DNA of 64,000 bases from an uncultured Gammaproteobacteria bacterium (lineage in GTDB: Bacteria; Patescibacteriota; Microgenomatia; Levybacterales; GWA1-39-11). Below, piece by piece: positions 22,618 to 45,817 of this stretch. The number at the start of each line of letters is the position of its first letter. Within the stretch, counting starts at the first letter, position 1. Where the stretch lies: the NCBI GenBank assembly GCA_964406795.1, contig CAYOTA010000001.1, forward strand, positions 77,081 to 141,080. The letters run 5' to 3'. The notes under the pieces are model-generated. The model was not told the DNA's origin. It saw only the letters and a list, made by a program, of their open reading frames with translations, and ran no database searches. A program made the translations under genes and the position numbers.

Positions 22618-22947
22618 ATGTATATCACCTCCTTTTTCAGGCTAAATGCTTAGTCTAGCTTAGCACGATTATATCAGTTCTTGTGCGTAAATGCTAAGTA
22701 ACGCTCAACATTTCATTTATGCTCAAATTTGTTCAATAATCGTTTTAATTGCTTAGTTACTGAGAAAAATCGGTCAATGTAGACCTTATTGTGTGTAAGG
22801 AGATACTTGTAGAAGTATTTTTCAGATCTACGAAGAAGTACAAATGCCTTGTCTTTTTGATTTTTGCCGTCCATCACGGCACAAGGTATCGGGAAGAGGT
22901 GTTGAAGTCTAGTCCTAAAATGGGCTCGTTTTCAAGCGTGTTGCTTT

Positions 22948-24234: not shown

Positions 24235-24237
24235 GGT

Positions 24238-24993: not shown

Positions 24994-24994
24994 A

Positions 24995-26983: not shown

Positions 26984-27050
26984 AGTTTTTTATTATTTTC
27001 AATCATTGGGTGGCAACTGGTCTAATCCATACATCTTGTCTTGAGACATG

Positions 27051-29729: not shown

Positions 29730-31287
29730 TCCTAGTCGCTTTGATGATATTCAAATCGTAATTATCTTTACCAAATTCGCACTTCCCAAGAATCATCTGA
29801 GGAATTTTCTTAATAGTTATATTTGAAAAATAATTTTCGCTCTCTGGAGCAAACGATTTGGCGCAGATTAATAAACTTTCATTTTCGGTCATTTGTGCAT
29901 GAATAGCATCGAGCTGTTCTACTGTCACGAAGCCAGTTGTAACAAAAATATAGTCCGTTTCGGTAGATTTACCCTGCTTCCAATATGCTGCCTCGTCAGG
30001 AGAATATTTAAAACCTTCATGTTTACACATAGCTGCGGACAACATATTTGCATTATATTTCTCATCAATCACAAAGTTTCCAAAACTGTCCTTGCGCAAG
30101 AGGGAAGGAGCTAAATTATAAAACTTAAATCCACCTCCACCTTTCCAACCAAGAGCTTCTGATAATGGTAACCCATCCTTACCGTCAACCACCTTCTTCA
30201 GCCTAGGTAAGCAGTGTGTTGTCGCGTGTTCGCCCAGTTCGACCCCAATCCATTTACGACCCATTTTGTGAGCGACTGACGCGGTAGTACCTGATCCTAG
30301 GAAACTGTCGAGTACCCAGTCTCCAGGCTTTGAAGCTATATCAAATATTCTCTTTATGAGTCTTTCAGGTTTAGGTGTTGAAAAAGGATCATCAGCAAAT
30401 AACTTTTTAATCTCTTGTTTAGCCTCCTGATTGTCACCAACTTCAGTTCGAAACCAAATTGTAATAGGGACAAGACCATCCTGCACCTCCGTAAGAAAAC
30501 GCTTATAGCGAGGAACATTGTTACCATTACTGCCGAAGTATATTCGATTATCGTTAATCAACTCTTCAAATCTGATTTTAGAAAATCTCCAGCTTGTACC
30601 TGCTGGAGGCATTAAGACTCTGCCTGATGGTGTGGTCAAAGGGTAAATATCCTTAGGATTTGGTGTTTTGGCATGACAAGGCCCTGATGCCCAGACTCCT
30701 CTTGGGTCGTTATCAATATTTGTATATCCTTTAGAATCATCACCATTGCGAGGCAACAAATTTCTTTGCCAAAGTAATTTATTCTTTGCGTAACAGAGTA
30801 TAAAATCGTGATTGTCAGATAGCCATCTTGCATCATTACTTCTCGTGTGTTTCTTTTCCCAAATAATTGTAGCTACAAAATTATTTCTACCAAAAACTTC
30901 GTCGCATAATACTTTTAAATAATGAGACTCTGTATCATCTACAGAAATCCATAAACTGCCCTGATCTTTATCTAAAAGATTTTTTAATATTTCTAATCTT
31001 GGGCGTACTAAATTTAACCAAATCGAATGTTCAAGGTTGTCGTCATAGTGCGTAAATGCACTTCCAGTATTATAAGGAGGGTCAATATAAATACATTTTA
31101 TTTTGCCTGTAAAATCTTGTTCTAAAGCCTTTAACGCAAGAAGGTTGTCACCGTAAATAAGCATATTTTCGGAGTTGTGGTCGCCATAAGACTTTTCAGA
31201 ATCTTCAATCAAGATTCTCGGCTCAAGCTTGAGTTCTTCATCTTTGCCGATCCATGTTAATTCCAGTTTTTGTTTTTTATTTGTCAT
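29689..31287 (-). CDS. Type III Mod N6-adenine DNA methyltransferase
   Basis: IYIDPPYN (motif IV) preceding LDSFLGSGTT (motif I): beta-class order typical of Mod. Confidence 0.8.
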   Translation of the reverse strand: MTNKKQKLELTWIGKDEELKLEPRILIEDSEKSYGDHNSENMLIYGDNLLALKALEQDFTGKIKCIYIDPPYNTGSAFTHYDDNLEHSIWLNLVRPRLEILKNLLDKDQGSLWISVDDTESHYLKVLCDEVFGRNNFVATIIWEKKHTRSNDARWLSDNHDFILCYAKNKLLWQRNLLPRNGDDSKGYTNIDNDPRGVWASGPCHAKTPNPKDIYPLTTPSGRVLMPPAGTSWRFSKIRFEELINDNRIYFGSNGNNVPRYKRFLTEVQDGLVPITIWFRTEVGDNQEAKQEIKKLFADDPFSTPKPERLIKRIFDIASKPGDWVLDSFLGSGTTASVAHKMGRKWIGVELGEHATTHCLPRLKKVVDGKDGLPLSEALGWKGGGGFKFYNLAPSLLRKDSFGNFVIDEKYNANMLSAAMCKHEGFKYSPDEAAYWKQGKSTETDYIFVTTGFVTVEQLDAIHAQMTENESLLICAKSFAPESENYFSNITIKKIPQMILGKCEFGKDNYDLNIIKATRNEAEESKEVQDEQ

Positions 31288-31291
31288 AGTT

Positions 31292-34200
31292 TTAGATTAT
31301 CTTCCATCGAATGGTAAATAATGGCTCAAGTTTTGAGTGCTGAGCCAATCGGGCTTCAACTGATTCAAGCAACTTTTCCTTCTTTAATTCTACCTCGTCT
31401 TGGGTCTCAAACAAACGCCTTCTCATCTCATTTCGTTTCTTCTCCCAATCTTTAATTTCTCTTTGGGCTTTCAATTTTTCATCTAAATTAATGATCTTTT
31501 TAGCATTTGTTTTTGCCGTTTTAATGTCAATATCAAACTTCCTTAAATCTAGCTCTATCGCTTTCTTTACATCTTCTGCCCAATTATCTAGTTTATCTAC
31601 CTCGTGATCAAAGAAACTCCCGTTACGCTCGGCGATAACGGTGGAAACAGTCTTAACATACGTATTTTCAAGTTCATCAAGTTTGGTTTTTTTATCACTT
31701 GGAACATTCAATGGAGTAGTGGACTCTGCTGATAACTGAAATATTTTCTTGATAATTTCAGGTTCTATTACATCACCAGAGTCGGTAATTGCAGAGAGAA
31801 TAATATTATCTTCTGCTTCAAATGATTCCACGGTAAAGTTTGAGATCTTCAATACTCCACTTTTTCCTACAAACCGTTTTAGTACAGATATTATGGTTTG
31901 ATTGTCGGAATAATTAAAGACAATTTCTGTTTCTTCAGCCTGTTTTGATTTAATGTCAGACAAAATACGCTGGGCAAGGGAATGTCCTGGGCGGTAAATG
32001 TGAGCATCTTCAATATTCTTACCTATTTTATAAGGGCCAGAATCAATTTCTTCGTTTGGAAATGGGTTCTTTTTTAACATGAATGAATATTCTTGTTCAG
32101 AAAATTCAGCATTATCGCCAAGATAAAATCTTGTGGTATCCCAAAGCCAACGGTTATACATGTCAAGATACATCGTAGTTTCTTTAAGATTTAATTTAAG
32201 TTTTTCGTGTACCTCAGCGTCAAAGTTCTCCAAAAGTGTTTGTCTAGTCTCGGAAAGATTATTTTTGATACTCACATCCATTTCCTCCTGAAGTTTATCG
32301 AACGCAGTATTAATCTCGTCTGTGGTACGACAATCTTGATAGATTGCTGCAATACGCTTTTCAAAGTCCACTCCAGACTCGATATTACCCAAAACTTCGT
32401 CACTAGCTCCGAAAACACCTTTAAACAATTTGAACTTTTGATCTAAAAGGTCATATACGCGACTATCAGCTGCGTTTTTTCGATTCACAAAATTAATTAC
32501 AACCACATCATGCTTCTGTCCGTATCGATGACATCTGCCAATGCGCTGTTCGATACGCTGTGGATTCCACGGCAAATCGTAGTTAATAACTAAGGAACAA
32601 AACTGTAAGTTAACACCCTCCGCTGCTGCCTCGGTGGCGATCATAATATCTGCTTCATCATGGAAGTAGTCGATAAGGGCAGAACGCATGTCCGCAGTTT
32701 TTGACCCAGTAAGTTTATCGGAGTCTTTATTTTTTTCAACCCAATTTTTATAAATTTCTTTTGATTTAGGATCGTTGTTCGAACCGTTAAAGAGGACGAT
32801 TTTATCCTGATAGCCATTATCCGGCAAAAGAGTCTCTGATAAATATTTTTGTGTAATCGTGGATTCAGTAAAAATAATCGCTTTTTGTTTTGCGCCAAGC
32901 TCTTTCGTCATCTCAAAACCTTTTTTAAGTGCTATCAGAAGCGCGTCCCCTTTAGAGTTAGTGAAAATAGCTTTTGCGAGATCTCTAAATCTTTCCAAAT
33001 CGATCTTTTCCTGTTCCATTAGTGGAATATCGTCCTGGGTGTATACCTTAGGTTTTTTACCTTTTTCTGTATCACCATCGTCACCTTCTTCATCATCAAT
33101 CCATTCATCAGATATTTCATCCAATCCCTCAAAATTTTGGGCAATCTCGGTTGTATCAAACTCAACAGGTACAGTTGCCAATGTCTTCTTCGTTTCATCA
33201 ATCAGTAATCCTAGTTTTGCTACGAGATTATTAAGGGTACTTGCTATGGCAAAGGAAGACGAAGCAAGTAACTTTCTTAAAATAAGTGTCATGAGCTGTC
33301 GCTGGCTCGAAGGAAGGGCAAACAATGTCGGCCGTTGTAAATATTCAGACATACTGTCATACAGCTCAATCTCTTGTTTCGTAGGGATGTAGTCCTGAGT
33401 AATTGGTTTACGTTCAGTGTATTTAATATATTCCAATACCTGACGTCTTAATGTCCGAATACAGACCGACTTTAGACGACTTCGTAAATCAGTAAAAAGA
33501 AGTTGTTTTGGATCGACCATTTGCTCATCTTCTGCCAGTCCATTTTCTCTTATAACAATACCTTTACCCGTGTCACCCTCTTTTGCCCACTGGATACCAC
33601 TTATATGTGTAGGAATTTCCTGCTCTCTAGGTGCATGCGAGTAATTTGCTTTGAAACTTTTTAAATCACCAAATACGTGATCATCGATAATGCTTACGAG
33701 ACCATATAGTTCAAGTAATGAATTTTGTAACGGTGTTGCTGTGAGCAGAATCTTGGGCACATCAGACAAAGAGCTTTTTATTTCTCGAGCTATCTTGTTA
33801 CTTGTCTTGTAAACATTACGTAGTCGATGCGCTTCATCGATTACTGCTAAATCCCATTTAGTTTGTTTTACGTATGGAGCTTTTCCTCTAGCAAAATGAT
33901 ATGAGCAAATAATTATCTTATCTTCCTGATCAAAAGGGTTGAGATTTCCGTCTTTAATAGATTGATTAAATGATTTGGCTTCCAATATCACCGAGGGCAA
34001 AAAGAACTTTTCTTGTAATTCCATGTTCCATTGCTTGCGAAGCGCAGCGGGAACAATCAAGAGAATCTTTCTTTTTCGCTCTGCCCATTTTTGAGATAAA
34101 ACAAGACCAGCCTCGATTGTCTTTCCTAGTCCAACTTCATCGGCCAAGATTGCACCCATCGATAAAGGGGATTTAAATGCAAATAATGCGGCTTCAATTT

Positions 34201-34327
34201 GGTGTGGATTAAGGTCAACCTGCGCATTAGAAAGAGTGGAAGATAATTTTTCAAGGCTATCTGAAGAACATCGCTTAGTTAACTCGTAAGCAAAGTATTT
34301 TGCATGATATGGCGTAATTTTTAACAT
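31292..34327 (-). CDS. SNF2-family helicase (1011 aa) co-operonic with Type III mod-res
   Basis: ADEVGLGKT, DEAHRLRN, HelicC block NYDLPWNPQRIEQRIGRCHRYGQ; 5-nt gap to mod. Confidence 0.85.
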   Translation of the reverse strand: MLKITPYHAKYFAYELTKRCSSDSLEKLSSTLSNAQVDLNPHQIEAALFAFKSPLSMGAILADEVGLGKTIEAGLVLSQKWAERKRKILLIVPAALRKQWNMELQEKFFLPSVILEAKSFNQSIKDGNLNPFDQEDKIIICSYHFARGKAPYVKQTKWDLAVIDEAHRLRNVYKTSNKIAREIKSSLSDVPKILLTATPLQNSLLELYGLVSIIDDHVFGDLKSFKANYSHAPREQEIPTHISGIQWAKEGDTGKGIVIRENGLAEDEQMVDPKQLLFTDLRSRLKSVCIRTLRRQVLEYIKYTERKPITQDYIPTKQEIELYDSMSEYLQRPTLFALPSSQRQLMTLILRKLLASSSFAIASTLNNLVAKLGLLIDETKKTLATVPVEFDTTEIAQNFEGLDEISDEWIDDEEGDDGDTEKGKKPKVYTQDDIPLMEQEKIDLERFRDLAKAIFTNSKGDALLIALKKGFEMTKELGAKQKAIIFTESTITQKYLSETLLPDNGYQDKIVLFNGSNNDPKSKEIYKNWVEKNKDSDKLTGSKTADMRSALIDYFHDEADIMIATEAAAEGVNLQFCSLVINYDLPWNPQRIEQRIGRCHRYGQKHDVVVINFVNRKNAADSRVYDLLDQKFKLFKGVFGASDEVLGNIESGVDFEKRIAAIYQDCRTTDEINTAFDKLQEEMDVSIKNNLSETRQTLLENFDAEVHEKLKLNLKETTMYLDMYNRWLWDTTRFYLGDNAEFSEQEYSFMLKKNPFPNEEIDSGPYKIGKNIEDAHIYRPGHSLAQRILSDIKSKQAEETEIVFNYSDNQTIISVLKRFVGKSGVLKISNFTVESFEAEDNIILSAITDSGDVIEPEIIKKIFQLSAESTTPLNVPSDKKTKLDELENTYVKTVSTVIAERNGSFFDHEVDKLDNWAEDVKKAIELDLRKFDIDIKTAKTNAKKIINLDEKLKAQREIKDWEKKRNEMRRRLFETQDEVELKKEKLLESVEARLAQHSKLEPLFTIRWKII

Positions 34328-34328
34328 A

Positions 34329-34499
34329 TTAATTCTTTTTACTTATGAATTTTTCTAAATCGGCTTTTCTATATCGCCTAGTTCGTTTTTCTCCAATTCG
34401 AATAGCTATGAGAATGCCCTTTTTGTCCCATATACGCAAAGTATTTACATGAACCTTTAAGATTTGTGCCGCTTCTTTGAGAGTTAATAGTTCTTCCAT
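34329..34499 (-). CDS. Small excisionase-family (AlpA/MerR-like) HTH protein, 56 aa. Not in the ORF track (below the size cut-off).
   Basis: Manual translation MEELLTLKEAAQILKVHVNTLRIWDKKGILIAIRIGEKRTRRYRKADLEKFISKKN; paralog of 39591..39773; stop 2 nt before the SNF2 start. Confidence 0.55.
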   Translation of the reverse strand: MEELLTLKEAAQILKVHVNTLRIWDKKGILIAIRIGEKRTRRYRKADLEKFISKKN

Positions 34500-34618
34500 A
34501 TTGATTTACCTACCAATTGATAACAATATTATATAGAGTTAGCTAGGCTTTTTCAACCATTTTTATACGAAAAAACACCTCAAAAAGGCCGAAGTCTATG
34601 TAGTATAGGAGGAATTCC

Positions 34619-34831
34619 TTAAACGAAGTCACTCATGGAAGATTTGAGGGCTTTTGCTACTTTTTGGAGTACTTCAAGAGAAGGAGCATGTCTACCTTGT
34701 TCAATATATCCCATATAGGCTCGACTGATGCCTGCTCTTTCAGCTGCTTCCTCCTGGGTAATCCCAATTTGTTTCCTTCGCTTCTGGATTTTCTTCCCTA
34801 TCGCTTTTGGAAGCGTTGCGTTTTTCCTCAT
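34619..34831 (-). CDS. XRE-family HTH transcriptional regulator
   Basis: IGITQEEAAERAGISRAYMGYIEQGRHAPSLEVLQKVAKAL. Confidence 0.75.
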   Translation of the reverse strand: MRKNATLPKAIGKKIQKRRKQIGITQEEAAERAGISRAYMGYIEQGRHAPSLEVLQKVAKALKSSMSDFV

Positions 34832-34947
34832 GTATATATTGTCTAAAACACTCGATCATTACTCCACTTAGCTACACTAAGAGTTTAGCCTTGAATACGG
34901 GGGTTTTTTATGCTAAGGTTGACTAAGCAACTAACTTATGACAGGAG

Positions 34948-35358
34948 GTGAACAAAATGGGATTATTTGGAAATAAACAACAAACTGGAGAAAAACCGTT
35001 GTATGAAACAAGTTATGCCGGGTTTTGGATTAAAGTTTTTCCTAATAGGATTGAGTTTAAAGCCGGAGTTGGTTCACAAAGTATTCCAATAAACCAGATA
35101 GCGAGTGTTCAACTACCTATGATGGGCATATGGAAAATCACTTTAGAAACAACTGGAGGAAAGAAGTACGCCGTACCAACTTCCAAAAAGAAAGAAGTTC
35201 AAAAGGCTATTTATGAGGCACAATCACAATTTTCTGGGAACGGAAGAGCTACTGAAGATGTGACTGGCGAAATTGTAAAGCTAAACGATTTAAAGGAAAA
35301 GGGAATTTTATCTCAAGAAGAATTTGATAAAAAGAAAAAACAACTTCTTGGAATTTAA
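34948..35358 (+). CDS. Bacterial PH-like domain + C-terminal SHOCT domain protein
   Basis: C-terminal IVKLNDLKEKGILSQEEFDKKKKQLL SHOCT motif. Confidence 0.5.
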   Translation: MNKMGLFGNKQQTGEKPLYETSYAGFWIKVFPNRIEFKAGVGSQSIPINQIASVQLPMMGIWKITLETTGGKKYAVPTSKKKEVQKAIYEAQSQFSGNGRATEDVTGEIVKLNDLKEKGILSQEEFDKKKKQLLGI

Positions 35359-35359
35359 T

Positions 35360-36907
35360 TTAAAACTTCATATCCAGTGTGATTGGTTCAATATCAAATC
35401 CTAAATCATTCATGTGTTGCAAAGACCAAGTTAATCCAGGGTGAGGATCAGGTTCTGGTGTAGATACTTCGCCCGGTTTACGCCTGCTTGATGGACGATC
35501 TGAATCTATGACTTTTGACATAAGTAATGTAAAAGCATCAGCCAAATCATCATATTTTTCCACACCAAAATTTACTAATTGACCTATTAATACTTCTGCA
35601 CCTGTTCTTGGAAAGAATACTTTCCCTTGTTGGATAAGGGGAGAAACCAAGGATAGTCTTGACCTTTTATCCATATTTGGAATTCTCACTTCTTCAGCAA
35701 GTACGTGTTCTACTGTCAGTTGTTGCGCTGCGGCACTTTGGTAACCGACACTTTCTATGTAGGCCACAGGATACGGTCTATAACCTACTTTAAGTTGCTC
35801 CGTTAAGGTTTTTATTGCCTGAATTGTTTGTGGAAAATCTAATTTCTTGTTTAAGATATATGGCAAAATGTAGACTTGAAGATTGTCGCCGTAACCCACT
35901 ACATACGCTGGAACTAAGGCCGTGAAGTTTGCCCATTCCAAAAGTGAAATAGCTAAGTCAACGCCAATCGCTACAAGCCTGGCTGGATAACGATCAGTAC
36001 TAGGAAGAATATCGTAATATTTTATCCAAGAGCCTTTTACAATTCGGTCTTCGTCAGCAATAATTTTTAACAAGAACTCCCTGTACCAAGCTGATTCATC
36101 AGAAATCTCTTTCCTTTTAGCTTCAATGTGTGCCATCGTTGGAAATTTGCCAGGCCAAGCAATATTTCCGTTATCGTCTAACAATGGAAATTCTTTATAA
36201 ATACCGCCTGCCCCTCCTGATTGGATATTTTGCTTAATTCGCATCATCAGCGAATCCTCATGCAAGAGGTTACCTACTGTAATTATTCTGGTGCCACTAT
36301 CTCCAATTGGCTTTATCTCACCAGAAAACCAGTTCCAGAGATTATCTCTGCTTTCTCTGGTCTTAACTGATTCCAGATCTTCAACATCGTCGATGATAAT
36401 AAGATCAGGTCGGTATTGTCGATGTCTGAGTCCTCTGATTCTTTCACTTTGAGATATGGCTGAAATTCTGGCGTCGTGGTGCGGGATTACGAGTGAATTG
36501 GATCGCCATTCGTCAGCTACTTCTGAAAATGGTCCAAAATCTCGTATCAATAACTCATTTGATGTAAGTTCTTGTTTTATGTTTGTAAGGATTTGTTTTG
36601 CCAATCCCTGGGTCAGGCTCACGAGCAGGGTATATTTCTTGCTTGGCTTACCAACCATTGCCCAGATAGGTAGTGCAAGAGTTGCTATTGTTGATTTAGC
36701 CGAACCACGAAAAGCAGTAATGGAAATCTTTTCTAATTCTTCGTTTTGTATGAGATTAAAAATTTCCTTTTGAAAATCAGCAGTCGGACAAGTAATGTAG
36801 TGAGGAAAATAAGTGACAAAAAACCAATAAAAGTTCTCCTGCGTTAATGCTCTTCGAAAATCAGGATTATCCTGAATTTGTTTTATGATTTGTTGTTGAT
36901 CATTCAT
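35360..36907 (-). CDS. Phage terminase large subunit-like protein (ATPase + nuclease)
   Basis: Walker A-like AFRGSAKST, Walker B LIIIDDVED, nuclease motif IGVDLA; 515 aa. Confidence 0.65.
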   Translation of the reverse strand: MNDQQQIIKQIQDNPDFRRALTQENFYWFFVTYFPHYITCPTADFQKEIFNLIQNEELEKISITAFRGSAKSTIATLALPIWAMVGKPSKKYTLLVSLTQGLAKQILTNIKQELTSNELLIRDFGPFSEVADEWRSNSLVIPHHDARISAISQSERIRGLRHRQYRPDLIIIDDVEDLESVKTRESRDNLWNWFSGEIKPIGDSGTRIITVGNLLHEDSLMMRIKQNIQSGGAGGIYKEFPLLDDNGNIAWPGKFPTMAHIEAKRKEISDESAWYREFLLKIIADEDRIVKGSWIKYYDILPSTDRYPARLVAIGVDLAISLLEWANFTALVPAYVVGYGDNLQVYILPYILNKKLDFPQTIQAIKTLTEQLKVGYRPYPVAYIESVGYQSAAAQQLTVEHVLAEEVRIPNMDKRSRLSLVSPLIQQGKVFFPRTGAEVLIGQLVNFGVEKYDDLADAFTLLMSKVIDSDRPSSRRKPGEVSTPEPDPHPGLTWSLQHMNDLGFDIEPITLDMKF

Positions 36908-37334
36908 GACTATTTTCTTTGGACGGAATAAGTGCCGCCATTTCTATTGCTTTATTGAGTAATTCTTTCTGTTCATCTGTCAGGTTAATTTCTTTGTTAT
37001 AGCCAGCGGTAGTCACCTCAACTCTGTTGCGATAGGAATCATGATGTGTCTTAAGCCAGAAAATTATCGAGGTCATGTTTTTATCCTTAATGGCACTAAT
37101 TAGCTGGCTCTCGGCTAGATCATTCACAAGCAAGTTGCCTTCTTGCAAGGCTTCATCTGCCTGTTTTGAAAACTCTTTATCTTCAGCTCTCCATCGATAA
37201 TATGTCGAACGTCCTACATTGGTTTTCTCACAGGCCACCTGAACTATGGGAGTTTTCTTTAGTTGCTCTACCAGTAGATCTTGTTCAACTTTTATACGAT
37301 CTCTAACTGTAATTTGATTATCTTTGTTGTTCAT
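36900..37334 (-). CDS. Phage terminase small subunit-like HTH protein
   Basis: HTH ACEKTNVGRSTYYRWR; ...IIFWLKTHHDSYR typical of TerS; overlaps terL by 8 nt. Confidence 0.5.
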   Translation of the reverse strand: MNNKDNQITVRDRIKVEQDLLVEQLKKTPIVQVACEKTNVGRSTYYRWRAEDKEFSKQADEALQEGNLLVNDLAESQLISAIKDKNMTSIIFWLKTHHDSYRNRVEVTTAGYNKEINLTDEQKELLNKAIEMAALIPSKENSHE

Positions 37335-38074
37335 AGTTTTTTAGCATTTTTACCTGTAACTTTTTCAAAACGATCCATGACGACCTGACAGTATTCTGGA
37401 TCAAGCTCGATTCCCAAACATCTACGCCTAGTTTGCTCACAGGCTATTAACGTAGATCCCGAACCTAGAAAAGGGTCATATACCCAGTCGCCGATTTTTG
37501 AACTATTTAGAATAAGATTGCGAAGTAACCCGACTGGCTTCATCGTTGGGTGCAACGGACTCTTATTTGGTTTAGGGTAAAACAAAACGCTTTTATCCTG
37601 GGATTTCTGAAACCTATGAGTGCCGAACCACCCATAGGCTATGAGCTCATGCATGGGGAGATAGTTAAGTCTTCCGAGTACCGCATGGTTTTTGATCCAG
37701 ATAAGAAGTTGGGCAAACTTGAATCCCTGTTCAAGCAGTCCTTCTCGCATAGAAAAGAGCATTTTGTCGGAATTAAACAAATAATAGCTATTTTTTTCAG
37801 CAAGATGTAGTTTAACTAATTTCAACCATCCACTTGTAAATTCTTTATATTCCTCATCAGTTTGCAAATGGTCATTTAGGATAGTTTTCCTTTTCCCAAC
37901 TTGGTTAAATCCAATTTTGTTTTCAATAAGCGCCACAGCGTACGGCATATCGGTGAGGATCAAAGAAACCTTCCGATCACTAAGAATCTTTTTAACAATT
38001 TCTGGATCCAATGCATCGCCACAAGCGAGATAGTGTGAACCTAGTTCAAAGATGTCATTCTTTTGGATTAACAT
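37331..38074 (-). CDS. DNA N6/N4 methyltransferase
   Basis: ILTDMPY (motif IV), VYDPFLGSGSTLIACE (motif I). Confidence 0.75.
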   Translation of the reverse strand: MLIQKNDIFELGSHYLACGDALDPEIVKKILSDRKVSLILTDMPYAVALIENKIGFNQVGKRKTILNDHLQTDEEYKEFTSGWLKLVKLHLAEKNSYYLFNSDKMLFSMREGLLEQGFKFAQLLIWIKNHAVLGRLNYLPMHELIAYGWFGTHRFQKSQDKSVLFYPKPNKSPLHPTMKPVGLLRNLILNSSKIGDWVYDPFLGSGSTLIACEQTRRRCLGIELDPEYCQVVMDRFEKVTGKNAKKL

Positions 38075-39338
38075 ATTTTGCCTCCTTTCCAGTCAATTGT
38101 TGATACCGAGCGACAATAACATCACAAAAGATCGGATCAATTTCGCAGAGGAACACCCTGCGTTTCAACTGCTCGGCGGCTACAAGTTGACTTCCTGAAC
38201 CTCCAAAGAGGTCAAGAATAATATCTCCTGGCTTGGTACAACGACGGAATGCTTTCTCATATAAAGTAGGGGGCTTTTGTGTAGGATGTTCGTAGTCCTG
38301 TCCATTTACACGCTTCACGAGCCAGATATTAAATAAGTCCATGATGTCATCGGGAAGTCGATTACCTGTTCCAATCTCTTTATTGAGGACTTCGCTGATA
38401 TTGTGAACAGAAGCTGATAGGTAAGGACTGCCGATAGTTCCGTAGACGCAAGGCTCGAAAACCTTATTAAATGCAATTTGGGGAGTCATGTTGGAATTAT
38501 TCTTGATCCAAAGACAAACTCGTTTGTTATTAATTCCTAATTCTGAATACAAACTTTGTAGCATCCCAATGTATGTTTCATCACACCAACAAAAGATGTG
38601 ACAATCGGGGTAAATAAATTGCAAGCCGTTTTGAAGAACAGTTTTTAGAAATTCTCGGTACTCACTGTCAGATTTTTTGTCAGTAGCTCTGCCTCCATAT
38701 TTTCCTTTTGTGCTCACGCCCTTGTTGTAACTAAGTCCGATGTTATAAATCGGATCATAATTAAGCATATGGATTTTATGGTCATCAACTAACTCCTTAA
38801 CCACTTCAGAACTGGTACTATCCCCGCAATACAATCTGTGTTGCCCTAGCAAAATTAGATCACCCAGTTTTGTTCTTGGATTTCTTATCTTTGTCGCCTC
38901 TACCTCAGCATCAAAATCATCATCTTCAACACCAAGCGCATCGTCAAAAATATGGGTGAAATCAAGATCGTCAAAACCAGATTCCAAAAGCAGTTCCATG
39001 TCAAAGCTTTTTAAAAGTTCGTAATCCCAATCGCCAGATACGCGATTCAAAGTCAAATTCAATTTCTTCTCTCTTTCTACATCTTCGATGTCGATAAAAT
39101 TTACAGGAACCGTTTCGTATCCTAAGTCCTTGGCAATTTTTAATCTTAGATGACCTGCGATTACGGTTCCGTAGCGAGATTTATTGCTATTAACTAGGAT
39201 TGGAATAACAAACCCGTTTTCCTTAATACTTTTCGTCGCATCATGTATAGTCTTTTCATACCAAACACGAGGATTGTAACCAGCAGGGTTTAAATCGTTG
39301 ATAGGAACTTCAACTGTTTGAAGAGATATTTGTTTCAT
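38055..39338 (-). CDS. ParB-like nuclease domain fused to a DNA methyltransferase (phage-type)
   Basis: N-terminal ParB/Srx fold (VPINDLNPAGYNPR...IAGHLRL); C-terminal ILDLFGGSGSQLVAAE motif I. Confidence 0.75.
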   Translation of the reverse strand: MKQISLQTVEVPINDLNPAGYNPRVWYEKTIHDATKSIKENGFVIPILVNSNKSRYGTVIAGHLRLKIAKDLGYETVPVNFIDIEDVEREKKLNLTLNRVSGDWDYELLKSFDMELLLESGFDDLDFTHIFDDALGVEDDDFDAEVEATKIRNPRTKLGDLILLGQHRLYCGDSTSSEVVKELVDDHKIHMLNYDPIYNIGLSYNKGVSTKGKYGGRATDKKSDSEYREFLKTVLQNGLQFIYPDCHIFCWCDETYIGMLQSLYSELGINNKRVCLWIKNNSNMTPQIAFNKVFEPCVYGTIGSPYLSASVHNISEVLNKEIGTGNRLPDDIMDLFNIWLVKRVNGQDYEHPTQKPPTLYEKAFRRCTKPGDIILDLFGGSGSQLVAAEQLKRRVFLCEIDPIFCDVIVARYQQLTGKEAKYVNPKE

Positions 39339-39532
39339 ACTGTCAATTTACCACGCGTTTTTTTGAAGACCCGGGTGACACGGAGGGCAAGGTGAAACCC
39401 TGGGTTGTATAGAGAATTGGTTGATATGTTGGGATAAATCGATTTTAGATTTTAAAAAATGATTAACAAAAATACCCCTTGACAAGGTTTTCGATAAAAA
39501 TCTTTCCCCTTAATTTATTGACCTTAAGTAGA

Positions 39533-39561
39533 TTGCTATTTAGTCGATATTTTTGTATGAT
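39533..39561 (+). promoter_or_regulatory. Candidate sigma70-type promoter for the HTH/giant NTPase operon
   Basis: TTGCTA -35, 17-nt spacer, TATGAT -10, about 30 nt upstream of the ATG at 39591. Confidence 0.3.
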
Positions 39562-39590
39562 ATTGTTAACAAATGGTAAGTTAGGAAGAC

Positions 39591-39773
39591 ATGAACAAAA
39601 CAGAAAAAATTCCAGAGCTGCTAACCCTAAAGGAAACATGCGACCTTCTTAAGGTTCATGCCAATACGCTTAGACAGTGGGATAAAAAGGGTATCTTAGT
39701 TGCGGTACGTTTCGGCGCGCGAAAAGATCGAAAATATAACAAAGAAGATGTCTTAAGGTTACTAAAAGGGTAA
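39591..39773 (+). CDS. Excisionase-family (AlpA-like) HTH protein, 60 aa
   Basis: LLTLKETCDLLKVHANTLRQWDKKGILVAVRFG; 3-nt gap to the next gene. Confidence 0.65.
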   Translation: MNKTEKIPELLTLKETCDLLKVHANTLRQWDKKGILVAVRFGARKDRKYNKEDVLRLLKG

Positions 39774-39776
39774 ATT

Positions 39777-42700
39777 ATGGAAGATATTAATTGGAGTGCT
39801 TTTAAGGCGAAATTCGATGGAAAAGAACAAAAGTCGTTCGAGAGGCTCAGTTACCTCCTTTTTTGTGACGAGTTTAACAAACCATTAGGGTTGTTTCGAT
39901 ATAAAAACCAGGCTGGCATTGAAACAGAACCAGTTGAAGTTGACGGGAAAAATATTGGCTTCCAGGCAAAATTTTATGAAACATCTCTTGCTAGTAATAA
40001 AGCTGAAATAATAGACGCACTTAAGAAAGCAAAAGATAAAAACTCCGAACTTAATAAAGTTATTTTCTATACAAACCAGGAGTTTGCGGAAAGTAGCAAG
40101 AAAAACAAAAAAGAACCTGACTATAAAGTAGAGATTGAAAATTATGCCAAATCATTAGTTTTAGAAATTGAATGGAGAACTAAGAGTTATTTTGAGTCAT
40201 CTCATGTAAGTATTAAAAATAAAAACATTGCCCATCATTATTTTAGCCTTGAAAAAAGCACACTTGACTTAGTTACTGAATTAACTCAACACTCGGACTC
40301 AATCATCTCTCCAATACACTCATTAATTGAATTTAATAACCAAGAAATTAAAATACAACGTGCTGAGACTCTTGCATTTCTCATTAAAAAACTTAAGGAT
40401 TTTCCATTAGTTATTTTGAGTGGCGAAGGCGGATCAGGAAAAACAGCGATTATAAAAGACTTTTATGATGCGAAAAAGAATGAATCACCCATTTTTATAT
40501 TTAAGGCTACAGAGTTTAATATATCGAATATCAATTTGCTGTTTAAAAACTACGGGGAATTTACTCTAGCTAGCTTTAATGAAGAATTATCTGGATATTC
40601 TGAAAAATTTATTGTAATTGATTCTGCTGAAAAACTGTCAGACATAGAGGATACTCAAGCTTTTCAAGAATTTTTAACTACAACACTCAGCAATAAATGG
40701 AAAATAATCTTTACAACACGATATAACTACCTTGATGACTTGAAATTTCAACTTACCAACATTTATGGAAGAAACTTTCATTTAATTAATATTGAAAATC
40801 TTGATCAGAAAGCCCTTAGTGATTTAGCATCTAAGTATGGTTTTAAATTGCCTCAAAACGACAAGTTTATAGATCTGATAAAAAATCCATTTTATCTTAA
40901 TGAATATTTGCAAAATTACACGACTTTAGGTGAATCAACAAACCCTACTGAATTTAAAGAACTCATATGGAACAAGCAAATATTGGGAAATTTCCAAAGA
41001 AATAACACGCATATAAAAAGGGAGGAAGTATTTCTAAAAATCGCAGAAAAAAGGGCAAATGACACTTCATTCTTTGTAAATACAGCTGAATTCGACAGTG
41101 AAATTCTTCACAAGCTTGAATCAGATGAGTTAATCAAACATGATCCTCGCACGGGTGGGTATTTTATTACGCATGACATATACGAAGAGTGGGCGTTAAA
41201 CAAAATAATTGATAGAGAGTTTTATAAAAATGAAGACAAACTCGATTTCCTAAAATCCATCGGCATTTCATTACCAGTTCGTAGAGCCTTTAGAATTTGG
41301 CTTTCAGAAAAACTTGCTGTTAAACCAAAGGAAATAGAGTCTTTTATCGATACCGTAATAAAAACTAAAGAAATCGAACCTTTTTGGAAAGATGAATCAA
41401 TTATATCTGTCCTATTGTCAGACTATGCTCAAACATTTTTTGAATTGTATGAGCAGAAAATATTAGCCAATGATTACGAGCTATTGGTCAGAATTATTTT
41501 TCTCCTGAGAATCGCGTGTAAAGAAATTGATGAGACACTACTACATCTCTTGGGGCTACAGAAGACTGATGGTATTGCTTTAAAAACTATTTTCACAAAA
41601 CCAAAAGGTGCAGGATGGAATTGCGTTATAAGTCTAATATTTAAGCATAAAGAGGAACTTGGCTTGACCAAGATGTTTATCATTACGTCTTTGTTGGCTG
41701 ACTGGAATAGCAAGTTTAAGAGGGGTAATACCACAAAAAATGCGAGTCTAATTGCTCTCTATTTATATGAACAATTTATGGATCAAGGTGGCTATTGGTC
41801 TGGATCAAGAGATGACAAGAAGGAAGAAATAGTAAATGTTATTTTGCAAGGTTCCGCTGAGATTAAAGAAGAGTTAAAAAAAGTTTTTGATACTGTAATA
41901 GCTGAAAAACAAACAAGCCACAGAGATAAATACTACCCATTAGTTGAGGTAATGTTAGGATCAATCTCTAGTGCCGCGGAAATTACAATGAACTTACCAG
42001 AATATGTTATTAAAATAGCTGACTTATATTGGTATAGACCGCCTGTTAAAGAGCTTAATCCATACGAACATCATTCAATTGGCGTTGAACAACACTTCGG
42101 CTTAAGTGAGATGCATGACTTTAACTACTTCCCCCCTAGTGCGCTTCAAACACCAACATTTCTACTTTTAAGATACCATCCTCAACTTGCAGTAAATTTC
42201 ATATTGTCATTTACAAATAAGACAGCTGAATGTTATTCAAAATCAGAATTTGGAGACGAGGTTGAAGAGGTGGAAATTTTTTTCGATGAATCATCATCCA
42301 TAAAACAACTAATTAGTAATCGTTTATGGAATATGTACAGGGGTACTCAGGTTTCCACCAGTCTTTTAGAGTCAATACATATGGCACTTGAGAAATGGCT
42401 ACTCGAATTCGCCAAAATTGTATCTGGTGAGGTTTTAGAGAGTTGGTGCCTATATCTACTCAAGAATTCGAAGTCTGCATCGATTACAGCAGTAGTGACA
42501 AGTGTCGTTCTAGCTAACCCAGATAAATTAAGCAAAGTCGCCATTATTTTATTTAGGTCTAGAAAATTGTTTTTTTATGACACAGGTAGATATAGCTTAG
42601 ATCAAACTGCCAGTTTTCAGTATTCAATAGGGAGCGGTTTGGGTCATGGAGATATGTATAGAAACGAAAGAATTAAAACGTGTGAAGATCCACATAGGAA

Positions 42701-44513
42701 ACAATCATTAGAATATTTGGCAGTAAATTATCAATTTTTTAGATCTGATAAAGTTGATGAAAAAACAGCCGAAAACAGACTAAAAGAAGTTTGGGATGTT
42801 ATCGATAAACATTATTCCGAACTTCCTGATGAACAAAGTGAGACTTCAGAAGACAAGACGTGGAGGCTGTATCTTGCGAGAATGGATAAAAGGAAAATGA
42901 ATCCTAAGCTTGAAAGAAAAGATGGACAAGTACTAATAAAGTTTAATCCTAAGATTGAACCGAAGTTGAGGAAGTACAGTGAAGATTCTTTGAAGAAAGG
43001 TAATGAGGCCTCAAAATATGTCCAACTTAAACTTTGGTCTAGCTACAGATTTGAATACAAGAAAGAAGAATACGAAAAATATGAAAAGTATCAAGATAAT
43101 CCAACGCAGGTTATATCCGATGTAAAAAAGATTGTTAGTAAGATAAAAAGAAATAAAGATGATAACTTCTCACTGCTGAATAGAACAATTCCAGTATTTT
43201 CATGCGCTGTTTTAGTGCGAGACTATTTTGATCAATTAAGCCCTAAGGATAAAGAGTATTGTAAAAAAATCTTACTAGAGTTCGCTTTTCTTCCACTTAA
43301 TCCTCAATACCGCTTTCAAATTTCTGATGGAGTTGAACCAGCAATTGCAAGCCTTCCCTTATTAATAAAAAACTTTCCCTCTGATAGAACAGAGACAAAA
43401 GCTTTATTACTGATGCTTTTAGTTAGTTCGTGGGGACATATTGAAGTATTTGTTATCAAAGCGATATTACATCAACTATGGAAACTGAGCTTTAAAGATG
43501 CACAGTCCTTATTATTTGGCTATATTTTATTAAAACCTAAATACGATCTTCTTAGAGAAGAATTAAGAAAAGAAAGTTATAAGAATTATCATTATGAGGA
43601 TTTAGAACCTAAGTTAATGTTAGCGTTCACTCAAAAGTATGAGAAGGAAAGCGAATCTGTTGTTGTGGATGCGATTTCGTACAAGGACTTAGAACCTTTA
43701 GCAGATTTAGAAAACGATGTCTTGAATACAATATTTGAACTAATTCCTTTAAGAACTTCAGATGAAGAACACAAAAAAATAATTGGTCAATTATTTCCGA
43801 TTTTTTCTAAAAAAATGTTCAAAGAGCGTGATGGAGATAGCTATCAATTAAGGCAAAGGTTTTTTGAGAAGATGTCTTATTTTCTACTCACATCTAGTAA
43901 AGATGAGCTGCATACGCACTTAATCCCGTTCATTGAAAACTTCACCCTCTCGAGGGAAACGGCAGACTTTTTTCAAGCACTAGTATTTGCTGAAGATTCA
44001 CTAAATGAATATGAGAACTTTTGGACTATATGGAACAATTACTACGATAAACTAAAGGATGCTTGTCAGGCAGAAAGACCCAATTTTTATCTTAAAGAAA
44101 TTATTCGTAACTATCTACTTGCTGGGTCATTTTGGAAGGAAGAAGCGAAAGAGTGGCATTCTTTAAAAGATCGTGAAAAAAGCTTTTTTAGCAATGTTGC
44201 TAATGAAATGGGTAAGTTCCCGACGACCCTTTATTCCATTTCTAAACTTTTAAACGAAATTGGAAGCAAATTCTTAGATGATAGTATTTACTGGATAGCA
44301 ACTATCATAGATAAAAATCCTGAATTAACCTCTGCTGATTTGGATACCAATACCATTTATTATCTTGAAAATTTAATTAGAAAACACATTCTGGTAGACA
44401 GACAAAGTATTAAAAGAAACACTAAAGAAAAAAAGGCTGTTATTTCCATTCTTAACTTCCTTGTTGAGCATGGTTCTCCAACGGGTTATTTGCTAAGAGA
44501 GGATATTCTTTAA
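39777..44513 (+). CDS. Giant Mrr-like restriction-endonuclease domain + STAND/NACHT NTPase + ~1200-aa C-terminal helical region (Avs-like antiviral NTPase candidate)
   Basis: N-terminus FERLSYLL...AGIETEPVEVDGKNIGFQAKFY...VIFYTNQEF (Mrr_cat-like D...QxK); Walker A ILSGEGGSGKTAII; Walker B FIVIDSAEKL; NACHT TTR motif KIIFTTRYNY. Confidence 0.6.
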   Translation: MEDINWSAFKAKFDGKEQKSFERLSYLLFCDEFNKPLGLFRYKNQAGIETEPVEVDGKNIGFQAKFYETSLASNKAEIIDALKKAKDKNSELNKVIFYTNQEFAESSKKNKKEPDYKVEIENYAKSLVLEIEWRTKSYFESSHVSIKNKNIAHHYFSLEKSTLDLVTELTQHSDSIISPIHSLIEFNNQEIKIQRAETLAFLIKKLKDFPLVILSGEGGSGKTAIIKDFYDAKKNESPIFIFKATEFNISNINLLFKNYGEFTLASFNEELSGYSEKFIVIDSAEKLSDIEDTQAFQEFLTTTLSNKWKIIFTTRYNYLDDLKFQLTNIYGRNFHLINIENLDQKALSDLASKYGFKLPQNDKFIDLIKNPFYLNEYLQNYTTLGESTNPTEFKELIWNKQILGNFQRNNTHIKREEVFLKIAEKRANDTSFFVNTAEFDSEILHKLESDELIKHDPRTGGYFITHDIYEEWALNKIIDREFYKNEDKLDFLKSIGISLPVRRAFRIWLSEKLAVKPKEIESFIDTVIKTKEIEPFWKDESIISVLLSDYAQTFFELYEQKILANDYELLVRIIFLLRIACKEIDETLLHLLGLQKTDGIALKTIFTKPKGAGWNCVISLIFKHKEELGLTKMFIITSLLADWNSKFKRGNTTKNASLIALYLYEQFMDQGGYWSGSRDDKKEEIVNVILQGSAEIKEELKKVFDTVIAEKQTSHRDKYYPLVEVMLGSISSAAEITMNLPEYVIKIADLYWYRPPVKELNPYEHHSIGVEQHFGLSEMHDFNYFPPSALQTPTFLLLRYHPQLAVNFILSFTNKTAECYSKSEFGDEVEEVEIFFDESSSIKQLISNRLWNMYRGTQVSTSLLESIHMALEKWLLEFAKIVSGEVLESWCLYLLKNSKSASITAVVTSVVLANPDKLSKVAIILFRSRKLFFYDTGRYSLDQTASFQYSIGSGLGHGDMYRNERIKTCEDPHRKQSLEYLAVNYQFFRSDKVDEKTAENRLKEVWDVIDKHYSELPDEQSETSEDKTWRLYLARMDKRKMNPKLERKDGQVLIKFNPKIEPKLRKYSEDSLKKGNEASKYVQLKLWSSYRFEYKKEEYEKYEKYQDNPTQVISDVKKIVSKIKRNKDDNFSLLNRTIPVFSCAVLVRDYFDQLSPKDKEYCKKILLEFAFLPLNPQYRFQISDGVEPAIASLPLLIKNFPSDRTETKALLLMLLVSSWGHIEVFVIKAILHQLWKLSFKDAQSLLFGYILLKPKYDLLREELRKESYKNYHYEDLEPKLMLAFTQKYEKESESVVVDAISYKDLEPLADLENDVLNTIFELIPLRTSDEEHKKIIGQLFPIFSKKMFKERDGDSYQLRQRFFEKMSYFLLTSSKDELHTHLIPFIENFTLSRETADFFQALVFAEDSLNEYENFWTIWNNYYDKLKDACQAERPNFYLKEIIRNYLLAGSFWKEEAKEWHSLKDREKSFFSNVANEMGKFPTTLYSISKLLNEIGSKFLDDSIYWIATIIDKNPELTSADLDTNTIYYLENLIRKHILVDRQSIKRNTKEKKAVISILNFLVEHGSPTGYLLREDIL

Positions 44514-45817
44514 AAAAGCGATAAATTTTCATTTATCTTTATTTGATTTAGACCTGCAAGCAGCAGTGATATTAAATAATATCTTCTGTCCGGTTTTGCA
44601 TAAAGAATCATGTTTTGAAGGTACATTTTGGTTGTAGTGTCGTCTATTTCGCTAAATTTCATTGGATAAATTGAGAGTTTGATTGTGCTTTCGCTCATGC
44701 GGGCGTGAATATCCCATCGCATCCGTTCAAATCTGACTATCTCGTCCTGAATCTGCTCTGGAAAATTGATTTTTGAAACATCGACGGAATCAATGAGCTT
44801 AGTTATATCCCGGAAGACATCTTCTTCTAAGACATATTCAACCTTACATTTTTTATCTTTTTGACGACTACATCTGTAGTAAGTATGAAAATTCGATCTG
44901 CCGTTTTTAAGTTTCCGAATTTTACTCTGGCGGTGCACTGGCGACCCACAACGAGCGCATTTTAGAAATCTGGCTATCGAATACTTATCTCCACGGGCAT
45001 ATGTATTGCGGAATGGTCGGAGTTTTGCTTGAACCTGATCATATCGTTCTAGGGTGACGGTAGGTTCGTAAATTCCTTGATATTCAATACCCTTAATCAC
45101 AAATCTGCCAGCATAGAATTTGTTTCGGAGTATTCCATAAATAACACTCTGAGGAATGTGTTTTCCTTTGGCACTTCTTAAAGAAGTATTCTTATTGATC
45201 CATGCAATTACTTTTTTTACGGGTATTCCGTCCGCTACCTTCTGGAATAACTTTGAAATGGGTTCTCCTCGCTCTGGATCGATGGAGATTTTACGTACTC
45301 CACCAATCGTTTCACTGATATAGCCAATTGGCACTGGCCCCGGCCAATATCCGAGCTGGCACTGATTTCGTATCCCGCGCCGAATGTTTATGCTTCGATT
45401 ATCGTTCTCTAGCTTAGCTTGACTGCCAAGGATCATTAAGAGGAACTTCTCATTAGGATTGTCGGTAAAGGTCTGTGAGTACGTCACGATCATCTTAAGC
45501 TTCCCCTCGTCCATCAGATCGACCAAGATACCAAGGTCTCCAGCGTTCCTTGATAATCTGTCTGGCGACCATGTAATAATGCCGGAGTAAATACCTTGCT
45601 CGATTTCTTTAAGTAGTTTGTTAAAAGTTTCTCGTTGTCCGCATTTTTTAGCAGTGTGACTTTCCCGATAGATTTCGCCAATTTCAAGATTATCTCGTTG
45701 TGCTATCTTTTGCATTTCGTTTACCTGCGAGTCGATAGAGATTGCCTGTCTTTCGTCCGACTCCGATGATTTTCTGGCATAGAGGCAAAACCGTATGTGC
45801 GAATCTTGTTTTTCCAT
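44510..45817 (-). CDS. Large serine recombinase (more divergent paralog)
   Basis: YARKSSESDERQAISIDSQ catalytic region; zinc ribbon CARCG...YYRC. Confidence 0.9.
   Translation of the reverse strand: MEKQDSHIRFCLYARKSSESDERQAISIDSQVNEMQKIAQRDNLEIGEIYRESHTAKKCGQRETFNKLLKEIEQGIYSGIITWSPDRLSRNAGDLGILVDLMDEGKLKMIVTYSQTFTDNPNEKFLLMILGSQAKLENDNRSINIRRGIRNQCQLGYWPGPVPIGYISETIGGVRKISIDPERGEPISKLFQKVADGIPVKKVIAWINKNTSLRSAKGKHIPQSVIYGILRNKFYAGRFVIKGIEYQGIYEPTVTLERYDQVQAKLRPFRNTYARGDKYSIARFLKCARCGSPVHRQSKIRKLKNGRSNFHTYYRCSRQKDKKCKVEYVLEEDVFRDITKLIDSVDVSKINFPEQIQDEIVRFERMRWDIHARMSESTIKLSIYPMKFSEIDDTTTKMYLQNMILYAKPDRRYYLISLLLAGLNQIKINENLSLF

Follow-up and report, generated by a model that had tools for sequence, protein, structure and literature searches.

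Paralogous mini-HTH genes as putative regulatory leaders of exchangeable defence cargo in a mobile element of Patescibacteria

Introduction

Small helix-turn-helix (HTH) regulators that head defence operons are already known, and include the controller (C) proteins, mad1, and CvkR. This paper describes two paralogous mini-HTH genes, designated HTH-A and HTH-B, that each precede a large defence gene within an apparent mobile element on contig CAYOTA010000001.1 (assembly GCA_964406795.1, Patescibacteriota); the whole stretch of 64,000 nucleotides that was analysed is referred to as the window. The C proteins of restriction-modification (R-M) systems, such as C.PvuII and C.AhdI, are encoded by a small HTH gene that heads the R-M genes and is co-transcribed with them, and they recognize a conserved operator at their own promoter that is common to unrelated systems, with a likely role in the control of toxic genes after transfer (PMC2175313, PMC2275141). 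The mad1 gene encodes a protein of approximately 60 amino acids (aa) and is the first gene of the MADS defence operon; its deletion affected defence only to a small extent, and its discoverers classed mad1 with widespread regulators (bioRxiv 10.1101/2023.03.30.534895). CvkR is a small HTH regulator for CAST (PMC9938897).

Two further proteins are of interest because of their mode of DNA recognition. BldC, a chromosomal developmental regulator of Streptomyces, binds to direct repeats in head-to-tail fashion (PMC5859096), and Gp36 of phage D29, a related phage mini-MerR protein, represses via direct repeats (PMC12266134). Excisionases (Xis, TorI, and AlpA-like proteins) fall in the same broad winged-helix superfamily and are encountered on mobile elements. 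P2/P4-type prophages and satellites carry variable defence cargo slots, while R-M systems are the main defences reported for Patescibacteria. To our knowledge, almost nothing is known about the promoters, operators, and regulators of this lineage. R-M islands are described in a recent study of horizontal transfer in Patescibacteria, which leaves recombinases, terminases, and HTH leaders unmentioned, and no description of the cassette presented here was found in a literature search that many subscription papers lay beyond.

On the basis of sequence comparison we propose, with moderate confidence, that HTH-A and HTH-B may be the regulators of autorepressing promoter-operator-regulator cassettes that belong to the backbone of the element, each of which would be co-transcribed with its cargo. 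Computation shows the genes, the promoter and box that they share, how the box is conserved and covaries with the protein, the modular linkage to diverse cargo, and the setting within an element; binding to the box, repression as opposed to activation, and co-transcription with translational coupling are inferred.

Results

HTH-A and HTH-B encode predicted BldC-like winged-helix proteins

The two genes are located as follows:

34499..34329, minus strand: HTH-A, 56 aa (MEELLTLKEAAQILKVHVNTLRIWDKKGILIAIRIGEKRTRRYRKADLEKFISKKN), predicted effector-less MerR-like winged-helix protein (HTH_17), heading cargo slot A
39591..39773, plus strand: HTH-B, 60 aa, paralogue of HTH-A, heading cargo slot B

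Translation confirmed both reading frames in the opposite orientations given by the original prediction, HTH-A being shorter than 60 aa. Their relatedness was also correctly perceived, with an identity that is slightly higher than the 50% or so suggested at the time, i.e., 56% across 52 residues (BLASTP, E 6e-22). The reported adjacency to large SNF2 and STAND genes holds: a single nucleotide separates the HTH-A stop codon from the ATG of a 1011-aa SNF2 gene (34327..31292), and 3 nt separate the HTH-B stop codon from the ATG of a 1578-aa STAND gene (39777..44513). Since the exact HTH-A and HTH-B sequences have already been called as genes in public collections and other genomes yielded 80 homologues (46-91% identity; the best 80 of 96 that matched two peptide patterns), nearly all of them from metagenome-assembled genomes of Patescibacteria, these genes are not chance reading frames. 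The closest relatives of HTH-A (83-91%; loci L001, L003, and L008) and of HTH-B (79-81%; L065, L072, and L097) are encountered in other loci, and the two genes are therefore not recent duplicates of one another.

Both proteins scored above the curated Pfam cut-offs of HTH_17 (HTH-A, 4.5e-12 and 46.5 bits; HTH-B, 2.9e-9 and 37.5 bits; cut-off 27) and MerR_1 (3.9e-9 and 2.7e-9, respectively), in agreement with the predicted heading of defence operons by paralogous mini-proteins of the HTH_17/MerR type, and HTH_3 was absent from their Pfam matches. The PADLOC mad1 profile PDLC04133 matched HTH-A (1.1e-13) as well as HTH-B (1.5e-9). In the 'excisionase family' model TIGR01764 (cut-off 28.8) HTH-A scored 31.9 and HTH-B 26.6, on either side of the cut-off, and the scores in the BldC subfamily model NF033787 (27.3 and 25.6 bits, respectively) were far below its cut-off of 77. 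Judged by these profile scores, no named subfamily is assigned to either protein by the curated models.

HTH-A and HTH-B comprise a winged HTH only, without a dimerisation, coiled-coil, effector, or sensor domain. In the PDB, their sequences were closest to the BldC-DNA complexes 6ama and 6amk (E 0.01), and MerR N-terminal domains came next. The AlphaFold2 model of HTH-A (predicted local distance difference test score, pLDDT, 84) contains helices at residues 7-14, 18-26, and 45-55 and a beta wing. Its top fold match was BldC 6ama with a template modelling (TM) score of 0.68; BldC chains overall reached TM 0.66-0.70 at 31% identity and ranked above MerR-family N-domains, which in turn ranked above Xis proteins (Pukovnik Xis and Tn916 Xis). 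These comparisons and the model predict both proteins to be effector-less MerR-like winged-helix proteins that are closest to BldC in sequence and fold.

A shared promoter, leader, and predicted operator

The two genes are preceded by the following elements:

34500..34556, minus strand: HTH-A promoter and leader, TTGAAA-17-TATAAT, box ATTGTTATCAATTGGTAGGT, and an AGGT-type ribosome-binding site
39533..39590, plus strand: HTH-B promoter and leader, TTGCTA-17-TATGAT and box ATTGTTAACAAATGGTAAGT

Both promoters are sigma-70-like, and that of HTH-A is near-consensus, with 11 out of 12 positions matched in a promoter scan. When aligned from the -10 hexamer on (TATAAT ATTGTTATCAATTGGTAGGT for HTH-A and TATGAT ATTGTTAACAAATGGTAAGT for HTH-B), 28 of the 32 nt are identical, and the leaders are better conserved than the coding DNA of the two genes. 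The predicted operator box has the form ATGKTA-N4-ATGKTA, starts directly after the -10, and has a period of 10 bp, which is about one helical turn; it reads TGTTATCAATTGGTA at 34525..34511 in the HTH-A leader and TGTTAACAAATGGTA at 39564..39578 in the HTH-B leader. Throughout the 64-kb window the core TGKTANCAANTGKTA is found only at the two HTH promoters, also when one mismatch is permitted. This occurrence of the same promoter and the same predicted operator at both genes supports the shared regulatory logic that the original prediction had suspected.

The box is conserved in other genomes as well. Within -150 to +30 of the HTH start, the strict box was detected in 38 of the 80 loci, against 5 occurrences in the remaining 1.83 Mb of the same loci, and in 64 of the 80 a 21-nt position weight matrix scored above the 99th percentile of the background. 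The leader consensus reads TTG...(17)...TG-TATAAT-AATGKTAnCAAATGKTArGT...AAAnCA-ATG. Moreover, the base preceding each TGKTA half-site covaries with the recognition-helix residue that follows NTLR: a Q goes with an A, and L, I, S, or D with a T (55 non-identical pairs; Fisher p 2.4e-8 and 1.6e-6 for the two half-sites, by statistics that ignore shared ancestry). The same switch recurs in a close pair, as HTH-B of the window has a Q and CAAATGGTA, and its 79% orthologue in L097 has an L and CTATTGGTA.

Conservation of this kind could in principle reflect a signal at the RNA level, such as a translation enhancer or riboregulator in a short 5' untranslated region, instead of an operator bound by a protein. 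The position of the box downstream of the -10, which implies that it is mostly transcribed, and its ending in an AGGT-type Shine-Dalgarno sequence whose spacing to the ATG is constant would fit such a signal. However, the leader RNAs displayed no significant secondary structure (z -0.09 and +0.24), so that an explanation by RNA structure was rejected, and an RNA signal would not predict joint changes of the half-sites or their covariation with a recognition-helix residue, which makes the RNA-level explanation highly improbable.

Unrelated cargo genes follow the HTH gene in other genomes

A same-strand open reading frame (ORF) that starts within 400 nt of the HTH gene, or is fused to it, was found in 72 of the 80 loci. 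The linkage is tight in 44 of these (a gap of at most 60 nt, often 1-6 nt or an overlap, and four fusion ORFs included) and loose in the other 28. Pfam R-M domains are present in the next gene at no fewer than 25 of the tightly linked and 13 of the loosely linked loci. The subfamily is strongly associated with defence genes, at least 38 of the 72 downstream neighbours in other genomes being R-M genes. These genes encode type I HsdR, type ISP, MmeI-type IIG, and type III Mod/Res proteins, and the remainder includes an AAA_13 ATPase (L043) and large proteins without a family match (L060/L065, L071, and L072). In the latter loci, proteins of 818, 1172, and 1225 aa without Pfam assignment fill an HTH-B-type slot (L060, 7173-9629; L065, 7175-9631; L071, 992-4510; L072, 8036-11713), and by their position they are candidate unknown defence genes. 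The fusions place the HTH at the N-terminus of a C5 DNA methyltransferase (L079, 6986-8149) or of GAF/PAS sensor histidine kinases (L049, 3843-5789; L078, 6977-9748), and L067 (6560-8497) has three HTH_17 copies in one long, possibly over-extended ORF.

The gaps of 1-3 nt suggest that translation of the two genes is coupled and yields equimolar products, which would also be expected if the mini-HTH protein were a DNA-binding subunit or adaptor that targets or licenses the downstream enzyme. The natural fusion to a C5 methyltransferase in L079 is in line with this idea, and the description of TIGR01764 includes DNA-binding domains of modification methylases as well. A role as a subunit is nevertheless improbable, considering that the cargo behind near-identical HTH proteins with one and the same recognition helix is mechanistically unrelated (type I, IIG, ISP, III, SNF2, Avs4, and AAA_13), that the curated NCBIfam and PADLOC models treat Avs4 as a single-gene system, that close homologues of both cargos of the window exist without an HTH gene, and that the conserved predicted target site lies in the promoter of the HTH gene itself.

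The latter homologues also bear on the original prediction, which named homologous loci without the HTH ORFs as its refutation. No HTH gene of this kind was found near homologues of the SNF2 operon (75-91% identity) in six independent contexts (L088-L096 and L098), and no HTH_17 gene was found upstream of Avs4 in L081 (55%), L086 (57%), L087 (55%), and E. coli plasmids (42%); tblastn was negative as well. By the criterion of the original prediction, these six SNF2 contexts and four Avs4 contexts (42-57%) refute the idea that the HTH genes are parts of the defence operons. Because such homologous cargo loci lack the HTH gene, the latter is not a component of the SNF2 or Avs4 system; it is part of the backbone of the element. 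In the SNF2 loci L093 and L094 the DNA similarity to the window starts 32 nt upstream of the SNF2 ATG, within the 3' end of the HTH-A coding sequence (window 34360-34328, L093 8968-9000), and therefore the final HTH-A codons overlap the 5' untranslated sequence of SNF2 in other genomes.

The element backbone has two exchangeable cargo slots

From left to right, the window contains a tRNA-Gln gene, a serine recombinase gene, a DUF4352 gene, the cargo of slot A, HTH-A, genes for an XRE-type and a SHOCT protein, a block of TerL-like, TerS-like, methylase, and ParB-methylase genes, HTH-B, Avs4, and two serine recombinase genes. The features outside the two cargo slots are:

19614..19687: tRNA-Gln gene, adjoining the left-end recombinase
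20632..21969, minus strand: large serine recombinase of the left end; its DNA is 79.6% identical to the recombinase/DUF4352 end of L097
22617..22072, minus strand: DUF4352 gene, preceding the left-end recombinase
34619..34831, minus strand: XRE-type HTH gene of the backbone, 70 aa (Pfam HTH_3, 2.7e-16), directly upstream of HTH-A
35360..39338, minus strand: element core, from the ParB-N/methylase through the large-terminase-like gene
39338..38055, minus strand: ParB-N/methylase
38074..37331, minus strand: methylase
37334..36900, minus strand: small-terminase-like (TerS-like) HTH protein
36907..35360, minus strand: large-terminase-like (TerL-like) protein
45817..44510 and 47521..46193, minus strand: two large serine recombinases at the right end (Pfam Resolvase, Recombinase, and Zn_ribbon_recom)

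The stretch 19614-47521 looks like a single integrated mobile element beside the tRNA-Gln gene, and the element of L097 likewise adjoins a tRNA-Gln-like stretch.

Eleven of the 80 loci, and L097 as well, have the TerL/TerS/ParB-methylase block beside the HTH gene, in two arrangements that both occur in the window. In the first, the ParB-methylase, TerS, TerL, XRE, and HTH-A genes and the cargo are co-directional (L005 and L008), and in the second the ParB-methylase gene is divergent from HTH-B and its cargo (L018, L027, L043, L060, L065, L066, and L072). The order of XRE followed by HTH-A is also found in L005, L008, and L011. The independently sampled locus L097 comprises a recombinase, DUF4352, an XRE gene that is 75% identical to that of the window, TerL, TerS, ParB-methylase, and a divergent HTH gene (79% to HTH-B) that is followed by Avs4 (93%).

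Comparison of related loci revealed where this order is broken. The window block 22921..34624 is wholly absent from L097, with breakpoints at the XRE stop codon and at the end of the cargo, and DNA similarity between the two resumes at 39546, within the spacer of the HTH-B promoter, the remaining intergenic region being diverged. With L098, the SNF2 block is shared at a DNA identity of 84-85%, and the similarity ends exactly at the SNF2 ATG. The slot that follows XRE and HTH-A holds a type I HsdR gene in L005, and the cargo differs in the equivalent slot of L005, L018, L043, L060, L072, and L097. Because the DNA similarity that related loci share is lost at the borders of the HTH-led cargo, the HTH cassettes are features of the backbone that head two exchangeable cargo slots.

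The breakpoints at the junction of cassette and cargo (the SNF2 ATG in L098, the XRE stop codon and the cargo end in L097), together with the replacement of cargo within the same slot in the six loci listed above, could also mean that the cassette is mainly an anchor for recombination, a portable stretch of homology by which cargo is exchanged, with regulation being secondary. This would leave the covariation of protein and box and the placement of the box at the -10 unexplained, and few breakpoints have been mapped; as the main function it seems unlikely. A contribution to recombination is compatible with the autorepression model and is not an alternative to it.

The element context fits part of the mobile-element or phage-responsive switch that had been envisaged: the recombinases, the TerL, TerS, and ParB-methylase genes, and L097 all tie the HTH genes to a mobile element, and nothing that points to a response to phage was found, a sensor domain being absent. 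The same context raises the question whether the HTH proteins are excisionases, that is, recombination directionality factors for the serine recombinases of the element, their position before defence genes being incidental. A homologous large serine recombinase gene lies within 7 kb of the HTH gene in 42 of the 80 loci, HTH-A passes the threshold of TIGR01764 (31.9 vs 28.8), and Xis proteins are among the weaker fold matches. In L091/L092, on a Bacteroidota contig, a distant HTH_17-like ORF that is 33% identical to HTH-A (5092-5253) is located directly upstream of a gene for a 574-aa serine recombinase, an arrangement that one would expect of a genuine directionality factor and that the cassettes of the window do not have. 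However, neither in the window nor in any of the 80 loci is the HTH gene adjacent to a recombinase gene, the two being 3-12 kb apart and usually on opposite strands; 38 loci are without a recombinase gene in the 14-kb stretch covered. In the window, the 4.7-kb Avs4 gene stands between HTH-B and the closest recombinase genes, and for HTH-A the distance exceeds 12 kb; the HTH genes are tightly coupled to cargo instead. The sole conserved candidate site is located in the promoter of the HTH gene rather than at an end of the element, and HTH-B stays below the TIGR01764 cut-off. The excisionase reading is accordingly improbable, and the earlier designation as excisionase or AlpA type, given this lack of a neighbouring recombinase gene, the score of HTH-B, and BldC as the best match, appears to be a mere family label.

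Cargo of slot A: an SNF2-assisted type III-like R-M operon

Slot A holds the following genes:

31292..34327, minus strand: SNF2 helicase, first gene of the slot, 1011 aa (Pfam SNF2-rel_dom and Helicase_C; DrmD-like)
22948..31287, minus strand: rest of the cargo, from methyltransferase to protease, by profile matches
31287..29689, minus strand: type III-like methyltransferase
29729..27051, minus strand: ResIII/TnsA-like endonuclease
26983..24995, minus strand: UvrD-like helicase
24993..24238, minus strand: PD-(D/E)XK nuclease
24234..22948, minus strand: trypsin-like protease

The SNF2 protein reached 693 bits in the DISARM DrmD model NF038318, which is below the cut-off of 950. In view of this score, the absence of DrmA and DrmB (DUF1998), and the presence of a type III methyltransferase and a type III endonuclease as neighbours, identification of the operon as DISARM was rejected; because DrmA and DrmB are absent, it is considered an SNF2-assisted type III-like R-M module. 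MADS was rejected as well, since mad6 and mad7 are absent and a weak mad8 match (1.4e-4) was found on the UvrD-like protein only. SNF2 homologues of 70-91% identity are frequent in Patescibacteria, and the trio of SNF2, methyltransferase, and endonuclease genes is kept in L088-L096 and L098.

Genes for a UvrD-like helicase and a PD-(D/E)XK (Cas4-like) nuclease trail the type III-like endonuclease gene in the window and in L098 (9019-11714). At the same position, L090 (16235-19261) encodes a 752-aa protein without annotation and, after it, a PD-(D/E)XK nuclease; homologues of the nuclease (48-61%) also follow R-M genes in L009, L010, L023, and L033. SNF2, Mod, Res, helicase, and nuclease genes may accordingly form a recurrent module of five genes, to which the trypsin-like protease gene is an addition in the window.

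Cargo of slot B: Avs4

Slot B holds a single gene:

39777..44513, plus strand: Avs4 (AVAST type 4 STAND nuclease), full length, 1578 aa (NF041815 and PADLOC)

The protein scored 2019.6 bits in NF041815 over residues 5-1578 (cut-off 1500) and 1979 bits, end to end, in the PADLOC Avs4 model, and the annotated Avs4 of E. coli plasmids shares 42% identity with it across the full length. A metagenome scan with Avs4 yielded four loci. Apart from the 93% copy in L097, all relatives are at most 57% identical, and this copy is the only one examined with an HTH gene upstream. Avs4 senses phage portal proteins, and Avs1-3 sense large terminases. The Avs4 gene is carried by an element with its own TerL-like gene (35360-36907), and if this division of targets holds, the choice of Avs type could, speculatively, avoid self-activation.

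Nature of the element and its surroundings

Neither a capsid nor a portal gene was seen between 19614 and 47521, and the stretches examined gave no capsid gene. A scan of viral contigs with the TerL-like protein returned relatives of only 26% identity and no further elements. The element may be a satellite-like element of Patescibacteria. The possibility that it splits an FGGY kinase gene (48854..47589) was rejected, as both kinase domains are present. Further to the right, the region 50000-60000 contains genes that match NADH-quinone oxidoreductase subunits L and N and has a G+C content of 0.43-0.45, compared with 0.32-0.40 elsewhere; additional ORFs for membrane proteins in this region may belong to an NADH-quinone oxidoreductase-like cluster. 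The host is a Candidatus Levybacteria bacterium, judging by the Lon protease of the contig, which is 93% identical to a protein of that group. Complex I-type genes are unusual in Patescibacteria, and the subunit L and N genes could be Mrp-type antiporter subunits or an acquired cluster.

Discussion

In the mechanism that we propose, one cassette would be located at each outward-facing edge of the core formed by the ParB-methylase, TerS-like, TerL-like, and XRE genes, and would be co-transcribed, and probably translationally coupled, with whichever cargo lies downstream. The BldC-like HTH protein would have the tandem ATGKTA-N4-ATGKTA box of its own promoter as its binding site, and because this box directly follows the -10 and overlaps the expected start of transcription, binding would repress the operon of the HTH gene rather than activate it. 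Such autorepression may hold a potentially toxic cargo at a fixed low level, and may permit a burst of expression when the element enters a naive cell that is free of repressor.

Several points weigh against this model. A site just downstream of the -10 might in theory also be used by an activator that distorts DNA, and the box can also be read as an imperfect inverted repeat, TAnCA-AA-TGkTA, which makes the binding mode ambiguous. The conserved AGGT and its spacing to the ATG may be a mere ribosome-binding site, the p values of the covariation were computed without phylogenetic correction, and retrieval of the loci by two peptide patterns biases the sample to close relatives. Furthermore, the next gene is 100-350 nt away in 28 loci, and some of the downstream genes are not related to defence (SecDF-like, YceG, and Fic).

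Comparison with the known systems places the cassettes between several of these. With BldC (68 aa; 6ama and 6amk) the HTH proteins share their small size and the restriction to a winged HTH, and the predicted target is a tandem direct repeat with a spacing of about one helical turn, comparable to the AATTxxxx(C) repeats of BldC. Unlike BldC with its large regulon, the cassettes are putative autoregulatory leaders of cargo, each with a single predicted site in 64 kb. The resemblance to C proteins lies in the small, presumably co-transcribed HTH gene at the head of R-M genes, in the predicted operator at its own promoter that unrelated systems have in common, and in the likely control of toxic genes after transfer. 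C proteins, however, are Xre-type (HTH_3) dimers that bind palindromic boxes around the -35 and both activate and repress, whereas the proteins described here are MerR/BldC-like with a tandem box past the -10; in addition, the cassette also heads cargo other than R-M genes (Avs4 and AAA_13), and whole operons rather than an endonuclease gene alone.

Like mad1, both HTH genes head a defence operon and match the mad1 profile, but MADS is found in Proteobacteria and Actinobacteria and not, as here, in Patescibacteria, and its mad6-8 core is absent from the window. Excisionases share the broad winged-helix superfamily, the Pfam family, and the location on mobile elements; the HTH genes differ from them in their coupling to cargo, the lack of an adjoining recombinase gene, the box in their own promoter, and a fold to which Xis is a weaker match than BldC and MerR. 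Finally, the element resembles P2/P4-type hotspots in having a conserved mobile backbone with fixed positions at which unrelated anti-phage systems are interchanged. In contrast to these hotspots, every slot here has its own conserved regulator cassette at its head, and the element belongs to Patescibacteria and carries serine recombinase and TerS/TerL-like genes.

A wider and decidedly tentative extension, which we regard as possible but doubtful, is that the HTH cassette acts as the docking module of a system for cargo capture. It would label the sites of defence-gene exchange, with recombination taking place at the cassette or beside it, and would provide host-independent expression at a limited dose; its carrier would be a satellite-like element, hitherto undescribed, of the candidate phyla radiation, in which serine recombinases are combined with ParB-methylase, TerS, and TerL genes.

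The value of these findings is limited, as they rest entirely on sequence comparison and HTH regulators of the leader type are known in principle. Nevertheless, a compact and widely conserved promoter-operator-regulator unit would give this lineage a concrete and testable regulatory element. The cassette precedes every R-M type examined (I, IIG, ISP, and III) and, in the window, the NLR-like sensor Avs4. The unit is a candidate portable expression part as well, and it would extend the controller-protein idea to the BldC/MerR-like fold and to immunity genes other than R-M. For the biology of Patescibacteria, it also shows that defined slots of a serine-recombinase element carry the defence cargo with which these reduced genomes are supplied.

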